A DNA stretch of 64,000 nt from Octopus vulgaris. Lineage: Eukaryota. Position 1 is the first letter of the stretch, and every line of letters begins with the position of its first letter. The notes under the pieces were generated by a model that did not search any database, was not told the DNA's origin, and was given only the letters and a program-made list of their open reading frames with translations. The stretch is taken from contig OX597815.1 of NCBI GenBank assembly GCA_951406725.2, forward strand, positions 76,074,001 to 76,138,000. Direction: 5' to 3'. Positions 7,223 to 53,525 of the stretch are shown in pieces. The translations under genes were made by a program, and so were the position numbers.

Positions 7223-8060
7223 TAGGGTGTGGTGAATATATTGTCCTCTAAATTAAACAAAAATGAAAATAACACAGACATCTCATTTTAACATAAAAAT
7301 ATCTTGAAATACTAAAGAGTAAATTTATTCAATAAAATTGCCATTGGTTTCAACCATGGCCTCCTGATGTCTTGGAATCTCTGGACAGTCTCCTTGTTTA
7401 AGTTGGTGAATGCTGCCATAATCCTTGCCTTCAGTTCATCTTTGGTGTTACAAGGAGTTTTGTTAGTCTCTTGCTCAACTGTGCCCCACACATAATAATG
7501 AAGGGGGTTGCAGTCTGAGGGTTAGGTGGCCAGATGTTAGGAGTAATGTAGTCGCAGAAATTGTCTGACAGCCATGACTGGATTCTCTTGCTTGTGTGGT
7601 ATGGTGCAGAATCCTGTTGCGAGATATAGGGTCTTCCAGCGGTCACCCTCTTGACCCAGGGCAGCACTACCTCCTCCAGGAAATTGATGTAGGCCTCCGT
7701 GTTGTGTCTGAGGCCATGTGGGAAGATGAATGGAGGCATGTCGTTGCCATCACTAGTGATCACTCCAAACGCCATGATGTTGACTGGATGTTTAATTTTT
7801 ATCACTCTCAATACATGCACTGTCCTCAGATTGACACCCAAACATTCTGAAATGTTCATATTGGAGCCTCTGGTGTGAATGCCAAGCAGTACAGCATATC
7901 AATTCCAATTTTCTGGCAGAGTGAATTGCGTTATGGTGCTGTTTTTTTTTTTTACAGACGGTGCCCAACTATACTGTGTAGTTGACAAAATCAAAAACAA
8001 ACAACACACATGTGTAAAATTAAAAATATAAAATGGCAGCAATTTAGCCATCACTCTCTG
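7223..8060 (-). mobile_element. Internally deleted Tc1/mariner-superfamily element, DD37D (maT-like)
   Basis: ORF 7431-7859 contains QQDSAPYHTSKRIQSWL..WPPN. Correcting one frameshift gives DCNPL(H)YYVWG, placing the third catalytic position 37 residues after the second D. Degenerate TIRs end in TA-rich sites. Confidence 0.75.
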
Positions 8061-18129: not shown

Positions 18130-19665
18130 GAGTTGGCAACAGGCTCCAATCTGATTTAGCAAGGTTTCTACAGCTGGATGCCCTTCTTAATGCCAACCAC
18201 TCTGAGAGTGTAGTGGGTGCTTTTTATGTGCCACCAGCACAGAAGTCAGTCGGAAGGCACTGGCATTGACCACATTCGGATGGTGCTTTTTACGTGCCAC
18301 TGGCATGAGAGCCAGTCAAGTGGCACTGACATTGACTCACACTTGAATGATGCTTATTATGTGCCACCAGCATGAGTGCCAGTCAGGTAGCACTGGCATT
18401 GGCTACAACTATGATTTCCATTTTGATTATGATTGACTCAATTGGTCTTCTCAAGCACAGCGTATCACCCACTGATTCAAGGGTACTTTTAAATAGGCTG
18501 CTTATGCAACACTGGTATCGGCTACAGCTGTGATCTCACTTACTGGGTCATTGGCCACAGTTTGATTTCACTTAACTCAACAGGTCTTCTCAAGCACAGT
18601 GTATCACCTGACGAGTCAAGGGTACTTTTAAATGGGCTGGCTATGTGACACTGGTGTCAGTCACAGTTGTGATCTCACTTTACTTGCCAGGTCTTCTCTA
18701 AAGGTCTTGGTCTGTTGTCATTGCCTCTGTGAGGTTTAACATTCGAAGGTCATGCTTCACCACCTCATCTCATGTCTTCCTGAGTTTCCCTCTTCTACAG
18801 GTTCCTTCCATTGTTAGGGTGTGACACTTCTTCCAACATTTCTCTCAGGGCGCTTATACTCTGTCATGTGCACACTGACATTATACATCCAGCGGATCAT
18901 ACCAGCTTCTTTTCTTTCAAGCCTATGTATGTCCTCAACAGTCATGGCCCATGTTTCACTGCTGTGTTACATGGCATGTTCGCACACATGCATCATACAG
19001 TCTACCTTTCACTGAGTGAGAGGCCCTTTGTTACCAGCAGAGGTAGGAGCTTTCTGAACTTTGCCCAGGCTATTCTTATTCTAATGGCAACACTTTCAGA
19101 GCAACCACCCCCACTACAGACTTGTTCACCTAGGTAGCAGAAGCTATCAACCTCTTCTAGTTTCTTCCTCTGGCATGTGATGGAATCTGTTTTCTGTACA
19201 TCATCGGTGTTTATTGTCCCTGTACATCTGCTATACACAAAAACTATCTTCCTGGTTAACCCTCCTTTGATATTGCTGCACCTCTTATGTGTCCATAGTT
19301 TATACTGGGTACATCTTATGGAGTTTCTTCCTACACCTTTTCTACAGTTCAAGCGAGGCCATCTACATGAAGTGGTTTGTGATTTGTTTGCCTTCCTACT
19401 TACTACGACTTTGGCTTTTGCTAGATTGACTCTAAGGCCTTTTGATTCTAGATCTTGCTTCCACACTTGAAACTTCATCTCTAGTTCTGGTTGTGACTCA
19501 GCTATTAGAGCAAGGTCATCAGCATAGAGGAGCTCCCAGGGGCAACCTGGAAGACTATGATGAATAAGAGGGGGCCAAGGACTGATCCTTAGTGAACCCC
19601 TACTTCTACCCGGAATTCTTCACTATACTTGTTGCCAACCCTCACCTTACTGACAGCATCCCTGT
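18130..19665 (-). mobile_element. 5'-truncated RTE-clade LINE (RT C-terminal half and 3' UTR)
   Basis: Reverse strand GCPWELLYADDLALIAES near 19500-19548, GLRVNLAKAK, DSFCYLG, RIRIAWAKFRKLLPLL; three 66-67-bp repeats at 18216-18410. Confidence 0.9.
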
Positions 19666-35907: not shown

Positions 35908-37198
35908 TGAGAGGCGTTCAATAAGTAATGCCCCTGACCCACTTCCCATAGCAGTAGAGCAACGAAACTTGGCACAGTTATTAGTCTTTTTCTACATAGG
36001 AACCACCCAGAGTTACGCATTTCTCACATCGTTTGATGCAGCTCTGAAGACCGTTTTGTAGAAGACCCCAGCTTGGTCCTCCAACCACGACGTGACTTCA
36101 GAAATCAAGGCTGCATCATCTGGGAAACGCTTTCCTTTCAAAAACAACTTCATGGCTGGGAAGAGGTGAAAATCAGAGGGTGCAAGGTCAGGAGAGTAGG
36201 GGGGATGGGGGATGAGTTCATAGCTGCACGCCTGTGCTTCTGATCTGGCGACACGCGAGTTGTGAACCGGATCGTTGTCCTGCAAGAGGAGGATGCCTTT
36301 GCTGATCTTGCCCCGCCTCTTGATTTTGATAGCTTCTCTTAATTTCCTCAAAAGTGAAGCATAATAGGCTCCTGTAATTGTGGCACCCTTTGCCAGGAAA
36401 TCTGTCATCACTACTCCGTCCTGGTCTCAGAAGACTGTGAGCATGACCTTGCCAGCAGAAGGCTGCACCCTTGCCTTCTTTGGAGGAGGTGAGTCACGGT
36501 GTGTCCACTGCATTGACTGGGCTTTGGTCTCTGGATCATAGTGATGGACCCAGGTTTCATCCTGTGTAATCAGTCTTTTGAAAAATTTTGACTCATCTTC
36601 TTGGCACATCTCCAAATTCATCCTCGAGCAATCGACACGTTCTTGCTTCTGGAAAGACGTGAGCAACCTGGGAATCCATCTGGTAGACACCTTTTGCATA
36701 TGCAAATGGTCATGAATGATAGTTTCCACAGACCCAGTACTAATCTTGACCTCATGGGCTATTTGGCGAATAGTTATGCGTCGATCTTCCAAAATGGCAG
36801 CCTCAACATGACGGACAGATGCCTCATCAATGGCAGAAGGGGGCGACCAGATCTGGGAGCTGTTTCCACAGAGTTCCGACCATGTTTGAATTCATGATGC
36901 CAGCGTTTTACAAGGTCATATGATGGGGCATCATCACCATAAGTTACTTTCATTTCATCAAAAGTCTCCCATGGTGTGCGTTCTTTCAAATACAAAAACC
37001 GGATCACTGCTCGACACTCAACAGGCTCCATTTCACACTTGACTCAGTTCAAACACTTGTAAATCAGAAACCACAATTAGTCCAGAGCTGTAATTGGCCA
37101 CTTAATCTATAAAGATATAAATAATTGTACATGCAAAATTTCAGCTAGATCGAATAACTGCAAGTGGGTCAGAAGCATTACTTATTGAACGCCCCTCA
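35908..37198 (-). mobile_element. Near-complete mariner transposon (DD34D, irritans-like); transposase pseudogenised
   Basis: 1291 bp, TA on both sides, 37-bp TIRs TGAG(A/G)GGCGTTCAATAAGTAATGC..CTGACCCACTT with 3 mismatches. ATG at 37031; motifs RSGRP, WIPRLL, ITQDETW, LQDN, HPPYSPDLAPSDFHLF. Frameshift near 36840, TGA at 36427 and a probable frameshift near 36050. Confidence 0.95.
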
Positions 37199-45392: not shown

Positions 45393-47019
45393 TTATCCCT
45401 AAATCTGCCATATTATTTCTTTTTGGCTATTGGTTATTCCCTATCCTGGGAATTTAATATCAGCTTCTTCATTTTAGTCAATCTTGCTTTTCTTATTCTG
45501 ATTTAATTTTCTTAGATTGTGTGAATTGTGATTTTCAAACACTGAAAGTCTTCCATATTTTGTAACTTGTGTTTTACAACTGTTACTTTTTCAGATTATT
45601 TCTTTCATCATTTTTAAGGATTGAATTTCTATAAATATTTTAAATGTTATTAGCTTGTTCAATTGTATTCCCCTGTACTGAAACTGGTTTTGTATTTTAA
45701 TTAGAACTTAGCAATATATAGAAAGCGCTATGAAGTCTATCTTAAATAGTTGATGAGAAATGAGAACTGGTGAAGGCCAAGGTTATAGTCCCCCCTTCTG
45801 ATTAATAAAAACAAAAACACTGCACCCATTCATGAAATGCATATTACTGTAATGAAGCTAAGATACACTCTGATGCCCACACAGAATGCACTGACTCACA
45901 CTACTTTTCAAAATGCTGTTTGTATTCACTGGATTTTGCAGATGGACGCCAGTCACTGGATAAGCAGACACTGTTTTGCCTTACTGGTTGCAGTTGATGT
46001 AAAATGCCTATAATTTTCATTTAGCATGGAAAGTTAAGCAAACAAACAAACAAAAAAAGAACCATGTTGATGAATAATTATATAATGAATGGGTAGAGCC
46101 AAGATAATTTGTATGTTGAAGCTTATCAAGTTTAGATAAACATTTACCTTGGTGTAGTTTTAAGTTACATTGAAAATATAAATATTGCCATTTTAAATGC
46201 ATGTGAAACTCATGATATGGTACATGTGTTAATAATATTCTTTATTTTATATCAATTAAACTGGGATGCGTTAATGTATGAAGACTTAAAGGTGACTTCC
46301 TGAATTTTTATTAACTTTATTTTTCAGTTTATTTGTAAGGGTAGATAAATTATGTTAATATATTGTGTTAATATGATGTATGGTAAAAGTGAACCTCAAT
46401 AACTTAAATTGATGAATAATCTGAAGCTAATATGTTAAATACTTTTAAGCAGCATAGAATGCAAAAATCCAGTGCTATGAATGTGAGTTGGAAGTTGTCC
46501 AACCCATTTCTGCATGGAACATGAACAAAATGATGACAATGATGTTGGTGGGCACACAATATATATTCAATGAAACAAGCAATAGAAACAGAAAAATGTA
46601 GGTACTTAATAAATGATATCCACAAAATGAAGTTAATTGTTTATACAGATGGCTTGCTAGTAAGTAGAACATAATTTCTGTCATAGGAACAATATAGTTA
46701 GTGTTTAGTAGTGGTTGTAGTGAAAATATTAAGATCTGTTATTTTGTTTGGTAACAAGATGGTTGCTCTTGAAACAGGCAGACTTTATGCAGTGTGAGAG
46801 AACACTTAAATGTAGATTTGTGGAGGCTGGAAAGGAATGGTTGGACAGATATGCAATGTAAATGAGTAATCCCAGCAGGTGTTATCTGCTGGATAGAAAG
46901 TGCTATCAACTGAAGGTAGAGGGTTCTTTGAATTAAAAACATGTTCAATCCCAGGTAAAGCACTAAGATAATTCACAAAAGATCAACTGAAGCAAAACAT
47001 ATCATGAAACAAAGAGAGC

Positions 47020-47230
47020 GGAATGAGAGTAGTGTGTCGGTGTGGATCAAATGAAGGGTTAGGGTCAAAATTCAGATACAACAGAGTTCAACACAAGACA
47101 ACTGAAGAAAGCTGGGGTGTACAACAGCTGAAACACAATGAAAGCAAGAATAGAGATGAAGATATTAGTTTGACAAATATAAACAGTATACATAATAGAA
47201 ATTCCTCATTTCAGAAATATAGAATTGTAT
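47020..47230 (+). mobile_element. Old Penelope-like terminal repeat with degenerate hammerhead core
   Basis: CTGAAGA-A-AGCTG..CAGCT-GAAA at 47102-47133; the 3' end aattcctcatttcagaaatatagaattgt matches 48855-48883. Confidence 0.55.
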
Positions 47231-48090
47231 GTGATAATGGGTATGATCAAATTTGAGAATGTTGGACCTCACACATGAGATCACAGGATGAGGACTAGTA
47301 ATATTGGATAGGAAAAAAATTAGAAAAATTATATAGAAACAAGGACAATATGAAGAAATCTGTAGATCAAAGTCATTTTTCTTCTTAGTGTAGAAACGGG
47401 AAAATGTTTCCCTGAATATTCATATGTTTTGGAATTATTGATAAGTACATTTGAACTTCTTTAATTTTTATCTGCATAAGAAATCAGTTTTGATCATTTT
47501 ATAAACCTGTCTTGAATCTTAAATGATTGGATTAATACCAAATCTCTCACTATAAGAGTTACAAGTTACTTTTGTTTTTATTCCTACTAACCACGGACCA
47601 TTGGTATGTTTTCAAACTGTTATCTGGCAGAATCATTAGTGTCAGACTGTATGCCTTGCAGCGTTTCTTCTGGCTCTTTGTTCTGAGTTCAAATCAACTT
47701 TACCTTTTTATCATTTCAAGATCAATAAAATGAAGTAGCAGTTTAGTAATGGAGTTAATATAATTAACTAAATTCCCTCAACTTGCTGGTCATGTGCCTA
47801 ATTAAAAAACAATGGTTTGCTACTATTACTTGCAATTTTTATATACCAAATGGAGAAGCCTCTATGCAGTTGCTTACTCTGACTGAGTTATTAGGAATAG
47901 CAGCCAAATCTCCTTCAAAACCCTCTATACTGTCTTAAATAAAGGATACACTGTACTGCTTGGTCTCCTAATATTAAAAAAAAGATGATCTGGTAACTGT
48001 TGGCATACATTTTGATCATAGGTTTGCTCATTAGGGATGACGTAGGATTAAACTACAGTTTAAACCTTAATCATACTTAACTGAAGGCCT

Positions 48091-48883
48091 GCACATTATT
48101 TACATTTGACAGACATTTGTCCTCATCTTGTCTGTTAACACAATGTTTCGGCTGGTATACCCTTCAGCCTTCATCAGGTGTCTTGGTGAAATTTCGAGCC
48201 TAGGTTCTCATTCCTAAGGTATTTTACAATGTTGTTATTATATTATTATTCAGCACACTGCTTGGAATCCTTCTCGGAATCATGGGATTAGTAGCCTGTG
48301 CTCTTAACCACTATGCCCAGGGGCAATTATGGAGTCAGTTTTAGGGCTTATAAATCTAATATTTTCCTATCATTCCTTAATACCAGTTCCCATATGCTAC
48401 TCATATCTGCACTCGTTCCACCCACTTCAAAGAATTGATCATGTATGGAAAAATGGAGACCACCTCATCCTGTGGGATGAAGTTAAAATAATAGACAGAG
48501 AACACCACTGGAAAATAAGAAAACTAAAAGAAGCAGCACATATGCTAGGACACAACAACCTCTTAATCAAACCGAATACAGATATTAGTAGCATATGGGA
48601 ACCGGTATTAAAGAACGATAGGAAAATATTAGATATATAAGCCCTAAAATTCACTCCATAATTGCCCATGGGCATATGGCATAGTGGTTAAAAGCATGGG
48701 CTACTAACCCCAAGATTCCAGTTGGATTCCAAGCAGTGACCTGAATAAAATACCCAGGTTCAAAATTTTCCCAAGACACCTGATGAAGGCTGGAGGGTAT
48801 ATCAGCTGAAATGTTGATGAGGACAAATATCTGTCAAATGGAAATAATGTACATAATTCCTCATCTCTCAAATATAGAACTGT
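48091..48883 (+). mobile_element. Penelope-like element remnant: GIY-YIG C-terminus between inverted pseudo-LTRs
   Basis: DHVWKNGDHLILWDEVKIIDREHHWKIRKLKEAAHM resembles the PLE GIY-YIG end (stop at 48640). Arms 48091-48417 and 48571-48852 are reverse complements. Confidence 0.85.
48137..48182 (-). ncRNA. Minimal hammerhead ribozyme motif in the inverted pLTR
   Basis: Reverse strand GACAC-CTGATGA-A-GGCTG..CAGCC-GAAA-CATT-GTGTT. The plus-strand copy at 48775-48816 lacks the 3' strand of stem I. Confidence 0.65.
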
Positions 48884-49739: not shown

Positions 49740-51652
49740 GTTATCAATGAGAAACATGTGCTTGATGTCTTTTGGAAACGTTTTCAATATTGGGGTGTAT
49801 TTGAGAAAGACAAACCCTCATTTCTTCTTCAATGCAACAGAGCCTCTTTTATTATTAACATTGTAGATATTCCAAGAAACAGTCATATTTTTCTTCTTTA
49901 AAAAATGCATGCAATTCCTTCTGAGTTCATATTTGCGATGTAGCACCTTACCTTTTGAAAGCCATCTGACATTTGTGTGTAAAAGTAAATGCATGTGTTG
50001 GGAATCCATATCAACACAAATTTGTTCAAATAAGCGACACTTCAATGGCCTACTTTTAATATAATTAACCATTTCATCAACTTGGTTTCATACTTGCTTT
50101 AACTTAACAGGTATTGTTTTTGAAACTAGTACCTCCCTATGTAGGAAGCAATGAGTATGTATAACATTAGGATTTTGCTGTTGTACAAGAGATACAAAAC
50201 CTTTAATAGAGCCTATCATAGATGGTGCCCCATTGGTACATATTCCAACCCATGAATTCCAGGATAAATTCCATTTCTCAAGGTAGGCAGATAAAATATC
50301 TAAAATATCTTGACCTCTTGTAGTGAGTGGCATTTCTTCACAACAAAAGAACTGATTTATGGCTTGGTTATCATCAATAAAGCAAATAAATGTAATTGTA
50401 TTTTGTTGCTAATGTCAGTTGATTTGTCAACCTGTAGAGCAAATTCTGAGTTTTGAAATTTGTTCTGTACATTTTCTTCTATATCAGCAGATAAATTCAT
50501 AATTCTCCTCTGGATTATATTATTTGAGAGCGGAATCTTGCTTATTTCTTATATGGTTTTAACTATCTTTTTACAAGCTGGTAAGATAATTGACTCAGCT
50601 AAAGTATGCAGTTTAGTTTGTAGTGCAATCATTTTGGTCATCTCAATAGATGCAACTTGAGCCTTTTCAGAAGCATTCATCCTGTTTTCAAAATAGTTTC
50701 TTTGTTTAGATTGCTGTTCTAGCAGTCTTTGGAAATAATTTAGATCTTTACATTGAAAATGTGAGTGTTTAGTTGTAAAATGTCTTTTCAGCTTGCTAGA
50801 CAACATTCCTTTGTTAGGCAACTTTTCACCACAAACAACACACAACGGAAGAGGTTGATCCTTGTTGCCAGTACAATGAAGCTCAAATTTTAAATAGCTA
50901 TTGCAATATTTATGATTGGGTTGAGCTTTTGCATTATTATCACTATGCTCAGTTGTTTTTGATGAACGTTCACTTTCAGATTTGTAATTGTCACAGTTAT
51001 GTTTCCTCTTAATAAACTTATCCAATTTATAGGTATTTTAGTCTGTTAATATGAATTGTATTGCACAAAGAGCACAGATTACTAATAGTCAAACTGAGAC
51101 AAGTGACCAGTGAGCTGTGAAAAGGGGCAGCGTGTCACATATCGTATTCTTTTGAGAAGTCCTTTAAAATTGAAAAGTTGAAAATTCTGGCCCCTATATG
51201 AATGAAAACGATTGAAATACAGTCGCAGTGTGTGAGGACGTATTAAAAGATTTAGTTCAATAGTTTATTTTTCACACTTATTGAAATGAAAACTGCAGAG
51301 GCTATGGCCGAAATAAATTGAAATGTGCACTGAATATGTCCATAAGACCTCAATTTTGAGGATAGATTGATGCTAATTAAGTCCATATCCTTATGAAATT
51401 TCAGATTCAAAACTGAATAACACTATCATACTATAATTAGCCTAAATGAATTGAATGACACAACGTCCTCTCATTCTTAGTTTAGAACTTAGTATTTAGT
51501 TTTTTGCCACTTAGACATTTGTATATGAGCTTTCTAGTGAATTTTGGTTTGTATATTTCATATTTTGAAATGCAATCTTACTTTTCCAAGGCACTCCTAA
51601 TTATATCTTGTGGTGCACCAGTGCATCGTACTGTACGGTTTGGGAACCACTG
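49740..51652 (-). mobile_element. Internally deleted hAT (Buster/Charlie, ZBED5-like) transposon
   Basis: BED-type finger PLCVVCGEKL..KLKRHFTTKH, ICTNGAPSMIG, THCFLHRE, VRWLSKG, C-terminal MRVCLSQI..QAHVSH. 5' TIR CAGTGGTTCCCAAAC adjoins GACTAGAC (nnnTAnnn Buster-type target). The other TIR was not found. Confidence 0.88.
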
Positions 51653-53031: not shown

Positions 53032-53525
53032 ATTCATCATCATCATCGTTTAATGACAGTTTTCCATACTGGCATGGGTTGGACGGTTTGACTGAGGTCT
53101 GGAGAGCCAGCGGCTGCATCAGGCTCCAATCTGATATGGCAATATTTCTACAGCTGGATCTCTTTCCTAATGCCAACAACTCCGAGAGTGTAGTGGGTGC
53201 TTTTTATGTGCCACTGGCACAGGAGCCTGTCAGGTGGGCCTGGCAACGATCATGTTCAGATGGTGCTTTTTATGTACCACCAGCACAGGAGCCATTGAGG
53301 GAGTACTGGCATTGGTCATGATTGGTTGTTGCTTTTTATGTGCCACCGGCATGGGAGCCAGTCAGGCGGACCTGACATCAACCACGTTTGGATGGTGCTA
53401 TTTATGTGTCACCAGCACGGGAGCCAGTCAGGGGGTACTGGCATTGGCCATGTTCAGTTGGTGCTTTTTATGTGTCACCAGCATGGGAGCCAGTCAGGTG
53501 GACCTGGCATTGACCACATTCCACT
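53032..53525 (-). mobile_element. RTE tail with five 66-bp tandem units
   Basis: Unit starts at 53196, 53262, 53328, 53394 and 53460 (GGTGCTTTTTATGTGCCAC...). Confidence 0.9.

Follow-up and report, generated by a model that had tools for sequence, protein, structure and literature searches.

What kind of repeat occupies positions 48090-48883 of the window (the whole 64,000-nt stretch of Octopus vulgaris DNA analysed here, from contig OX597815.1), and where did the RNA behind such copies begin and end? An initial annotation, made from the sequence, read the locus as a Penelope-like element (PLE) with inverted pLTRs that combine a tRNA-like Pol III head with a minimal hammerhead. Family positions below take the opening base of the tRNA-like head, window 48670, as 0.

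The insertion (48090-48883) is a decayed, inverted copy of a Penelope/Poseidon-type element. Its arms, which the annotation had correctly recognised, are 85-92% complementary over four blocks, and the head and the hammerhead are present in both. The features of the locus are as follows.

46945-47230, plus strand: fragment of an older sister PLE family, B box to tail, a separate insertion
48090-48418, minus strand: left arm, a 5'-truncated copy in inverse orientation that spans family positions -100 to about +255 and lacks the tail
48137-48182, minus strand: left-arm hammerhead, core boxes intact, palindrome lost
48209-48211, minus strand: family start codon (position +130), retained only in the left arm
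48250-48330, minus strand: left-arm head, with a 7-nt loss at the A box and an altered B box
48419-48435, no strand: filler between the arms, 17 nt
48436-48883, plus strand: right arm, a 5'-truncated but tailed copy that spans family positions -234 to +285
48436-48640, plus strand: C-terminal codons of the RT-endonuclease ORF and stop
48664, plus strand: G at family position -6, putative RNA start, 13 nt 5' of the A box
48670-48741, plus strand: tRNA-derived head, 73 nt long at family level, with tRNA-Arg the nearest of the host tRNAs sampled
48677-48687, plus strand: A box, intact
48721-48730, plus strand: B box, damaged in the right-arm copy
48775-48815, plus strand: minimal type I hammerhead, dead in the right-arm copy (palindrome changed, stem I 3' strand deleted)
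48850-48883, plus strand: PLE tail, about 35 nt; in tandem copies, the first codons of the conserved ORF body

Identity to the family majority is 90% for the left arm and 93.5% for the right arm, in which the endonuclease frame keeps its last 68 codons and ends at 48638-48640. An A box, an anticodon-like arm and a B box had been annotated in the head; the A box is indeed intact, but the right-arm B box is changed, and the same arm has lost the start codon and the 3' strand of hammerhead stem I. Likewise, the 35 nt or so reported between head and hammerhead hold for the window (35-39 nt, to the boxes at 48780-48786 and 48808-48811), but they result from a deletion, the family distance being about 90 nt. 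The locus is a dead copy of a common repeat. Elsewhere in the window, two frames at 50088-51037 (minus strand) resemble a hAT-type transposase with a zinc finger; those at 7431-7898 and 36427-36891 (both minus strand) look like Tc1/mariner transposase fragments, and one at 19002-19619 (minus strand) like a LINE reverse transcriptase fragment. An array of 66-nt units, 72-80% alike in register, occupies 53193-53522.

A DNA search of the 2.8-Gb genome returned 3893 candidate copies, which share a common 3' end and are truncated to varying extents upstream. Exact 27-mers gave 7846 matches for the 3' end, 4561 for the hammerhead, 3449 for the head and 701 for the segment just upstream of the head. 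As reversed controls of the head and hammerhead 27-mers gave 0, these two modules are not chance likenesses. Family sequences are majority sequences of fetched copies. The unit built in this way (30 ORF-side and 30 ORF-start copies) measures 2667 nt and carries one RT-endonuclease ORF of 835 aa, in the order head (0 to 72), AAT spacer, start codon (+130), hammerhead (about +159 to +205), tail (+250 to +285), RT, endonuclease and stop. An earlier reference was 3 nt shorter in the AAT spacer, so that its position +197, the base immediately 3' of the predicted cut, corresponds to +200 in the later numbering. The ORF thus starts between head and hammerhead, reads through the hammerhead and the tail, and stops at -30 of the next head; the promoter module sits in the 5' UTR of the autonomous element, a point absent from the annotation.

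An RT domain was detected on one copy (RVT_1, E 1.4e-10, L242). Homologues are PLE proteins of 825-855 aa with PF00078, PF26215 and PF28514; one (P0025) carries PF01541, and another, 58% identical (P0009), also reads through the hammerhead in the same frame. A Pfam search of two endonuclease fragments gave no match; we take the C-terminal motif of the family endonuclease to be GIY-YIG. The assignment to PLEs with inverted pLTRs is further supported by partial tandems of the form pLTR-ORF-pLTR (53 tail-to-ORF junctions; pLTR, tail, ORF and pLTR in L241 and L243), by inverted truncated copies, with an inverted partner at the 5' junction in 58 of 92 head-anchored copies, and by the 30-40-nt tail. 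Removal of the hammerhead by splicing was also considered, and found no support; nor did a retained intron near the 5' end, an optional PLE feature, show up among the RNA-seq joints listed (15 of 88), none of which is GT..AG. The family occurs in contigs of five organisms (A-E) and is hence shared among related species. Other repeats recur within the AAT spacer (L255, L278, L296, L297, L303, L314, L330 and L346), which suggests microsatellite-targeted insertion.

Compared with 12 host tRNAs of 7 amino-acid types, the only types among the 30 tRNA loci sampled, the head aligns end to end, and best with two tRNA-Arg (49/73, z about 8). The tRNA origin of the head rests on this colinear alignment, because profile searches gave nothing: the Rfam tRNA and hammerhead models had no match in the window or in 20 relatives, and ARAGORN reported no tRNA in the window and remained negative for the head down to a 75% threshold. 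Classification as a tRNA gene was rejected, as neither the covariance model nor ARAGORN finds a cloverleaf. In the family majority the A and B boxes are intact and the cloverleaf is lost. That the head is a family feature, as the annotation had it, was borne out by 28 of the 30 ORF-side copies anchored just upstream, which run through it; of the other two, one ends at -1 and one is internally deleted. Against three further SINE-like heads among the fetched sequences, only 46-52 of 82 positions match. Family positions -18 to -3 (window 48652-48667) are a decayed reverse complement of the first 17 nt of the head, as if the head had been captured as a fold-back insertion, and a short palindrome around -7 to +4 is kept in both this family and its sister. 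At another locus (L216), seven tRNA calls, mostly Cys, cluster within 3 kb.

The position at which copies begin was read from samples taken as the first places along the contigs that matched an exact pattern, in order of position: 92 distinct head matches (the first 92 of 3449 places), 30 of 4561 hammerhead, 30 of 701 upstream and 75 of 7846 3'-end matches, together with all 53 tail-to-ORF junctions. Among the head-anchored copies, 80 of 92 begin between -20 and +16, 11 extend further upstream and 1 lies at the anchor edge. Per 100 nt at risk, 5' ends number 3.5 between +20 and -10 (152 copies, three position-ordered samples), 0.07 between +60 and +20, and 0.17-0.27 upstream of -42. The figure for +153 to +60 (0.60) is inflated by microsatellite breaks, ends called at +75 to +104 often being breaks at expanded AAT repeats or later insertions; that for -10 to -42 (2.7) reflects mostly fold-back artefacts, and ends called at -10 to -18 are mostly fold-backs with a chance match to the upstream arm.

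All fetched loci, which are not a random set, yielded 197 distinct head starts, 119 of them in short copies. In 21 of the 119, GCCC at -6 to -3 follows neither a fold-back nor native sequence, and in about 10 of those 21 (counted by eye) the copy's first base next to the unrelated sequence is G(-6) itself, 13 nt ahead of the A box; this spacing agrees with that of rodent tRNA-derived SINEs. The other short copies comprise 27 perfect fold-backs, 9 with native sequence and 62 that start later. Most upstream pLTRs joined to an ORF start end well short of the head. Four of the 53 reach +20, of which three stop (at -8, -2 and 0) and one passes; in L268 the upstream pLTR stops at +3. Two upstream pLTRs that pass the head extend to -62 and -182, so some templates start further up. 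In the junction set (L491-L543), 13 of 53 upstream pLTRs begin at +226 to +243 and 7 junctions retain next to no pLTR, which may reflect a second RNA start or an artefact of the repeats.

The older sister family, traced from the fragment at 46945-47230 (L544-L580 and L588), encodes an endonuclease about 65-70% identical and carries a homologous head in 8 of 8 ORF-linked copies. The head hence predates the split of the two families and was kept. The sister family has its own version of the head and a different spacer, with the same hammerhead and the same start codon, which stays in frame across an in-frame insertion. Between the families the boxes are identical at 18 of 23 positions, versus 55 of 96 for neighbouring segments (one-sided P 0.05), which makes selective conservation of the boxes a borderline reading. 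By script, 11 of 16 sister copies that reach +20 start at -7 to +13, with two more by eye, and only 11 nt separate the same G from the A box. One locus (L596) may represent a third variant. A second, very young PLE family (L381-L410; copies 98-100% identical, frames up to 820 aa) is 29% identical to the family of the insertion at 48090-48883, has a T-rich 3' UTR with GAA/GAT microsatellites, and shows no head within the 180 nt of sequence at hand. In 80 metagenome PLE loci (35-50% identical), a single pair of A and B boxes was found (L418), inside the ORF region and with no hammerhead after it; none of the 10 loci with a hammerhead has both boxes between stop and hammerhead.

Two explanations of the 5' ends that do without Pol III have to be weighed. 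The head might be no more than the inert remnant of a tRNA or SINE that entered the 3' UTR long ago, with the RT stalling or snapping back at a hairpin (-18 to +16, -13.4 kcal/mol) that overlaps the pile-up. The frequency of inverted partners at the 5' junction and the shared sequence of short and long copies fit such a stall. However, the ends cluster on the far side of the loop (-7 to 0), where the RT would already have opened the stem; the 27 fold-backs copy the head perfectly rather than keep the native 5' arm; 25 of 34 non-inverted copies also start at -20 to +29; and in the sister family, whose upstream arm differs, the ends pile up in the same way. We consider this explanation improbable. 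Slightly less so, though still unlikely, is an RNA 5' end at the head that is made otherwise than by Pol III, either by a Pol II start or by an RNase P-like cut that trims long transcripts. Drosophila Penelope has a TATA-less internal promoter of Pol II type in its pLTR, according to the available portion of PMC2377424, and RNA made by Pol II would be capped and translatable. An RNase P-like cut would suit the 10 ends that fall exactly at position 0, but many ends include -6 to -1, which a cut at 0 cannot produce, and the cloverleaf has been lost while the boxes were kept in two families.

The other end of the copies bears on the transcript that the initial annotation had proposed, a short Pol III RNA with its 3' end at the ribozyme cut, which PLE machinery would mobilise in trans as an independent SINE/retrozyme. 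Copies do begin where a Pol III transcript would, but they do not end at the cut: 72 of 92 end at +243 to +286, 45-90 nt past it and about 120-155 nt into the ORF, a further 15 apparent ends lie at +83 to +118, at or near the AAT spacer, and 0 of 92 fall within 10 nt of the cut. With no copy ending near the cut and most ending past it, the template is normally uncut. A minor class of copies begins at the cut: starts at +201, +202, +202 and +204 make up 4 of 8 ends between +153 and +221 in the 3'-anchored sample (P 0.003), and starts at +201, +201, +204 and +205 make up 4 of 12 in the junction sample (P 0.016), both against an even spread over that interval.

The hammerhead lies inside the ORF and has a stem II of 6 bp and a stem I of 5 bp. 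Its core boxes are intact in 84 of 127 copies, 45 of which also keep the palindrome; the family majority has the AACGTT palindrome that the annotation had predicted. Judged by its sequence, it would be a normal dimer-type minimal motif of type I, with an extra base before stem II, a G-C closing pair and a palindromic stem III; the same features are described in the accessible text of PMC4209133.

Short copies with head and hammerhead are far commoner than ORF-linked ones, yet they do not form a separate lineage. They measure 260-290 nt (below 700 nt, as in SINEs), with a tRNA head and A and B boxes. Divergence from the majority is 7.6% for 77 long copies and 8.3% for 116 short ones, without fixed differences: five positions differ in frequency (P < 0.01), but none of them in its majority base. 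Target-site duplications are rare, a repeat of at least 8 nt being found in 2 of 17 non-inverted short copies (5 of 272 in the control). The short copies are not a separate SINE and do not derive from a transcript that ends at the cut. Classification as a non-autonomous, LINE-dependent tRNA-derived SINE was rejected on their identity in sequence and age with the pLTR of the autonomous PLE, and classification as a non-LTR retrozyme with tandem cut-to-cut units on the arrangement of copies, which are dispersed or inverted and end past the cut. The dominance of short copies that start at a tRNA head, and the proposal that animal retrozymes are non-autonomous PLE derivatives (in the part of bioRxiv 10.64898/2026.07.22.740005 at hand), speak for the independent SINE/retrozyme; against it stand the position of the ends, the equal divergence and the lack of tandem arrays. 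As the mobile form it is largely refuted, and we regard it as very improbable overall, although cleavage may still release an RNA of about 205 nt from the upstream side.

A Pol III transcript of the whole unit would have to avoid terminators, and from -7 to the second tail (2960 nt) the sense strand has 0 runs of four T, whereas such runs number 31 for A, 10 for C and 1 for G. Within the ORF, 0 TTTT compare with 3.6 expected from synonymous shuffles (P0 0.008), a result that refers to the majority sequence of copies about 7% diverged; in single copies TTTT is not shared between copies, except in 7 of 76 at one site. There is one TTCTTT in the ORF, a possible weak terminator. Controls show little comparable: the second PLE family has 6 (expected 6.05), four LINE families of the genome have 3, 13, 7 and 2 (expected 1.9, 9.75, 8.4 and 3.9, respectively), and 25 metagenome PLE ORFs have 148 (expected 134). 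Two of these 25 ORFs, versus 1.06 expected, are free of TTTT; both belong to one headless PLE family (L421 and L451), which has 6 in the 3' UTR. For the sister family the ORF sequence is too short for the comparison. TTTT ranks second of 256 four-mers in depletion and AAAA is as depleted (both P 0.007), so general homopolymer avoidance could account for part of the lack. We take the absence of TTTT as moderate support for Pol III; a 5' end made by other means would leave it unexplained. RNA-seq of organism B (three raw unstranded runs, about 6% of reads) gave reads on both strands, mostly less than 95% alike, 66-87% of which run on into unlike sequence, and neither their starts nor their ends pile up. 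Such a pattern suggests that many genomic copies are read through, and is uninformative on Pol III.

Taken together, these observations make it probable that Pol III sets the 5' end in the pLTR and that the element's own RT primes internally; we favour this reading because it is the simplest account of the -6 start, the kept boxes, the lack of TTTT and the ends past the cut. Against it speak the upstream pLTRs that pass the head or fall well short of it, the hairpin across the pile-up, the 11-nt spacing and borderline box conservation in the sister family and, as regards terminators, the equal depletion of AAAA, the TTCTTT in the ORF and the headless family free of TTTT. Pol III would start at G(-6) and, meeting no TTTT, could run through the ORF. 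The RT would prime internally, 120-155 nt into the ORF, by analogy with anole Poseidon. Priming in the pLTR beside the RNA start would yield the SINE-like copies of 260-290 nt, the majority, and priming in the downstream pLTR the 5'-truncated ORF-bearing copies like those of the window, often joined to a second inverted cDNA. The hammerhead would cut a minority of RNAs and leave templates that start at +200. Short copies may stem from the 5' portion of full-length RNAs, or from short RNAs that downstream and solo pLTRs give rise to; pLTRs that pass the head would require either strand transfer or an RNA of several units. Read-through by Pol II may supply the mRNA, translation of an uncapped RNA being the weak step. 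In other systems ribozyme cleavage can support cap-independent translation, according to the part of PMC13725137 at hand; here, with the cut 23 codons past the start codon, translation of a cut RNA would have to begin at a codon other than AUG. A bolder version, which we advance tentatively and with clearly less confidence, has Pol III make both the full-length template and the mRNA: a captured tRNA promoter would have replaced the Pol II promoter, all terminators would have been purged from the 2.7-kb unit, and SINE-like copies would be made in cis by internal priming.

What appears new is a PLE with a tRNA-derived promoter module in its 5' UTR, the use of that module by Pol III being inferred from the copies. 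No PLE pLTR with a promoter derived from a tRNA or used by Pol III is described in the main texts of the literature searched; Repbase or Dfam may list the family as a SINE or a PLE. Pol III promoters have so far marked non-autonomous elements, a rule to which a tRNA promoter that drives a coding element would, if true, be an exception. Such an element would also show an mRNA that Pol III makes naturally and without a cap, and would offer a route to SINE birth in which the head is first captured by an autonomous element. From genome data alone, the pile-up of 5' ends locates where PLE transcription starts, and the ends at +200 suggest that a PLE hammerhead cuts in vivo, a point left open in the accessible parts of PMC4209133 and PMC11167929.

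The closest counterpart among PLEs is Poseidon of Anolis carolinensis (PAc). In the available text of PMC11167929, its ORF starts inside the pLTR, the hammerhead overlaps the ORF start, the tail lies between two internal RT start sites and uncut RNA is the main template, as here. By contrast, that text mentions no tRNA-derived head, and in the anole element reads at the cut site were looked for and not found, against eight genomic 5' ends at the cut here. Penelope of Drosophila virilis resembles our family in having the promoter within the pLTR and needing a tandem arrangement; it differs, as the same portion of PMC2377424 describes it, in a LINE-like TATA-less promoter and a 75-nt intron, where we find A and B boxes and saw no intron. 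Animal non-LTR retrozymes share the type I hammerhead and the relation to PLEs, but form tandem units, and the excerpts at hand of PMC7229834 and bioRxiv 10.64898/2026.07.22.740005 mention neither a tRNA head nor Pol III. A survey of octopus repeats counts 893 unclassified SINE and 30 Penelope families among the recently active ones, and the part of PMC13282606 at hand makes no mention of ribozymes.

Outside PLEs, tRNA-derived SINEs (PMC3531059, in part) are likewise short copies below 700 nt with a tRNA head and an RT-recognised 3' part; in our family, however, the RT comes from a PLE and not a LINE, the short copies form no separate lineage and target duplications are rare. The TRIMp3 elements Cassandra, Helenus and Ajax also carry a Pol III promoter derived from a small RNA in the terminal repeat, but are non-autonomous LTR elements, and the accessible text of PMC10886601 argues that their autonomous partners must use Pol II. 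Finally, the initial annotation treated its combination of modules as possibly undescribed; a Pol III promoter with a hammerhead is in fact known from the SINE-like Sm-alpha and Sj-alpha repeats of Schistosoma, where a Pol III promoter is followed by a hammerhead; we did not find it reported in an autonomous PLE. According to the part of PMC6765202 at hand, these are non-coding tandem repeats freed by cleavage, with the promoter at the 3' end of the monomer, whereas the module described here serves a coding element as its 5' UTR, and it is with the promoter that copies begin.
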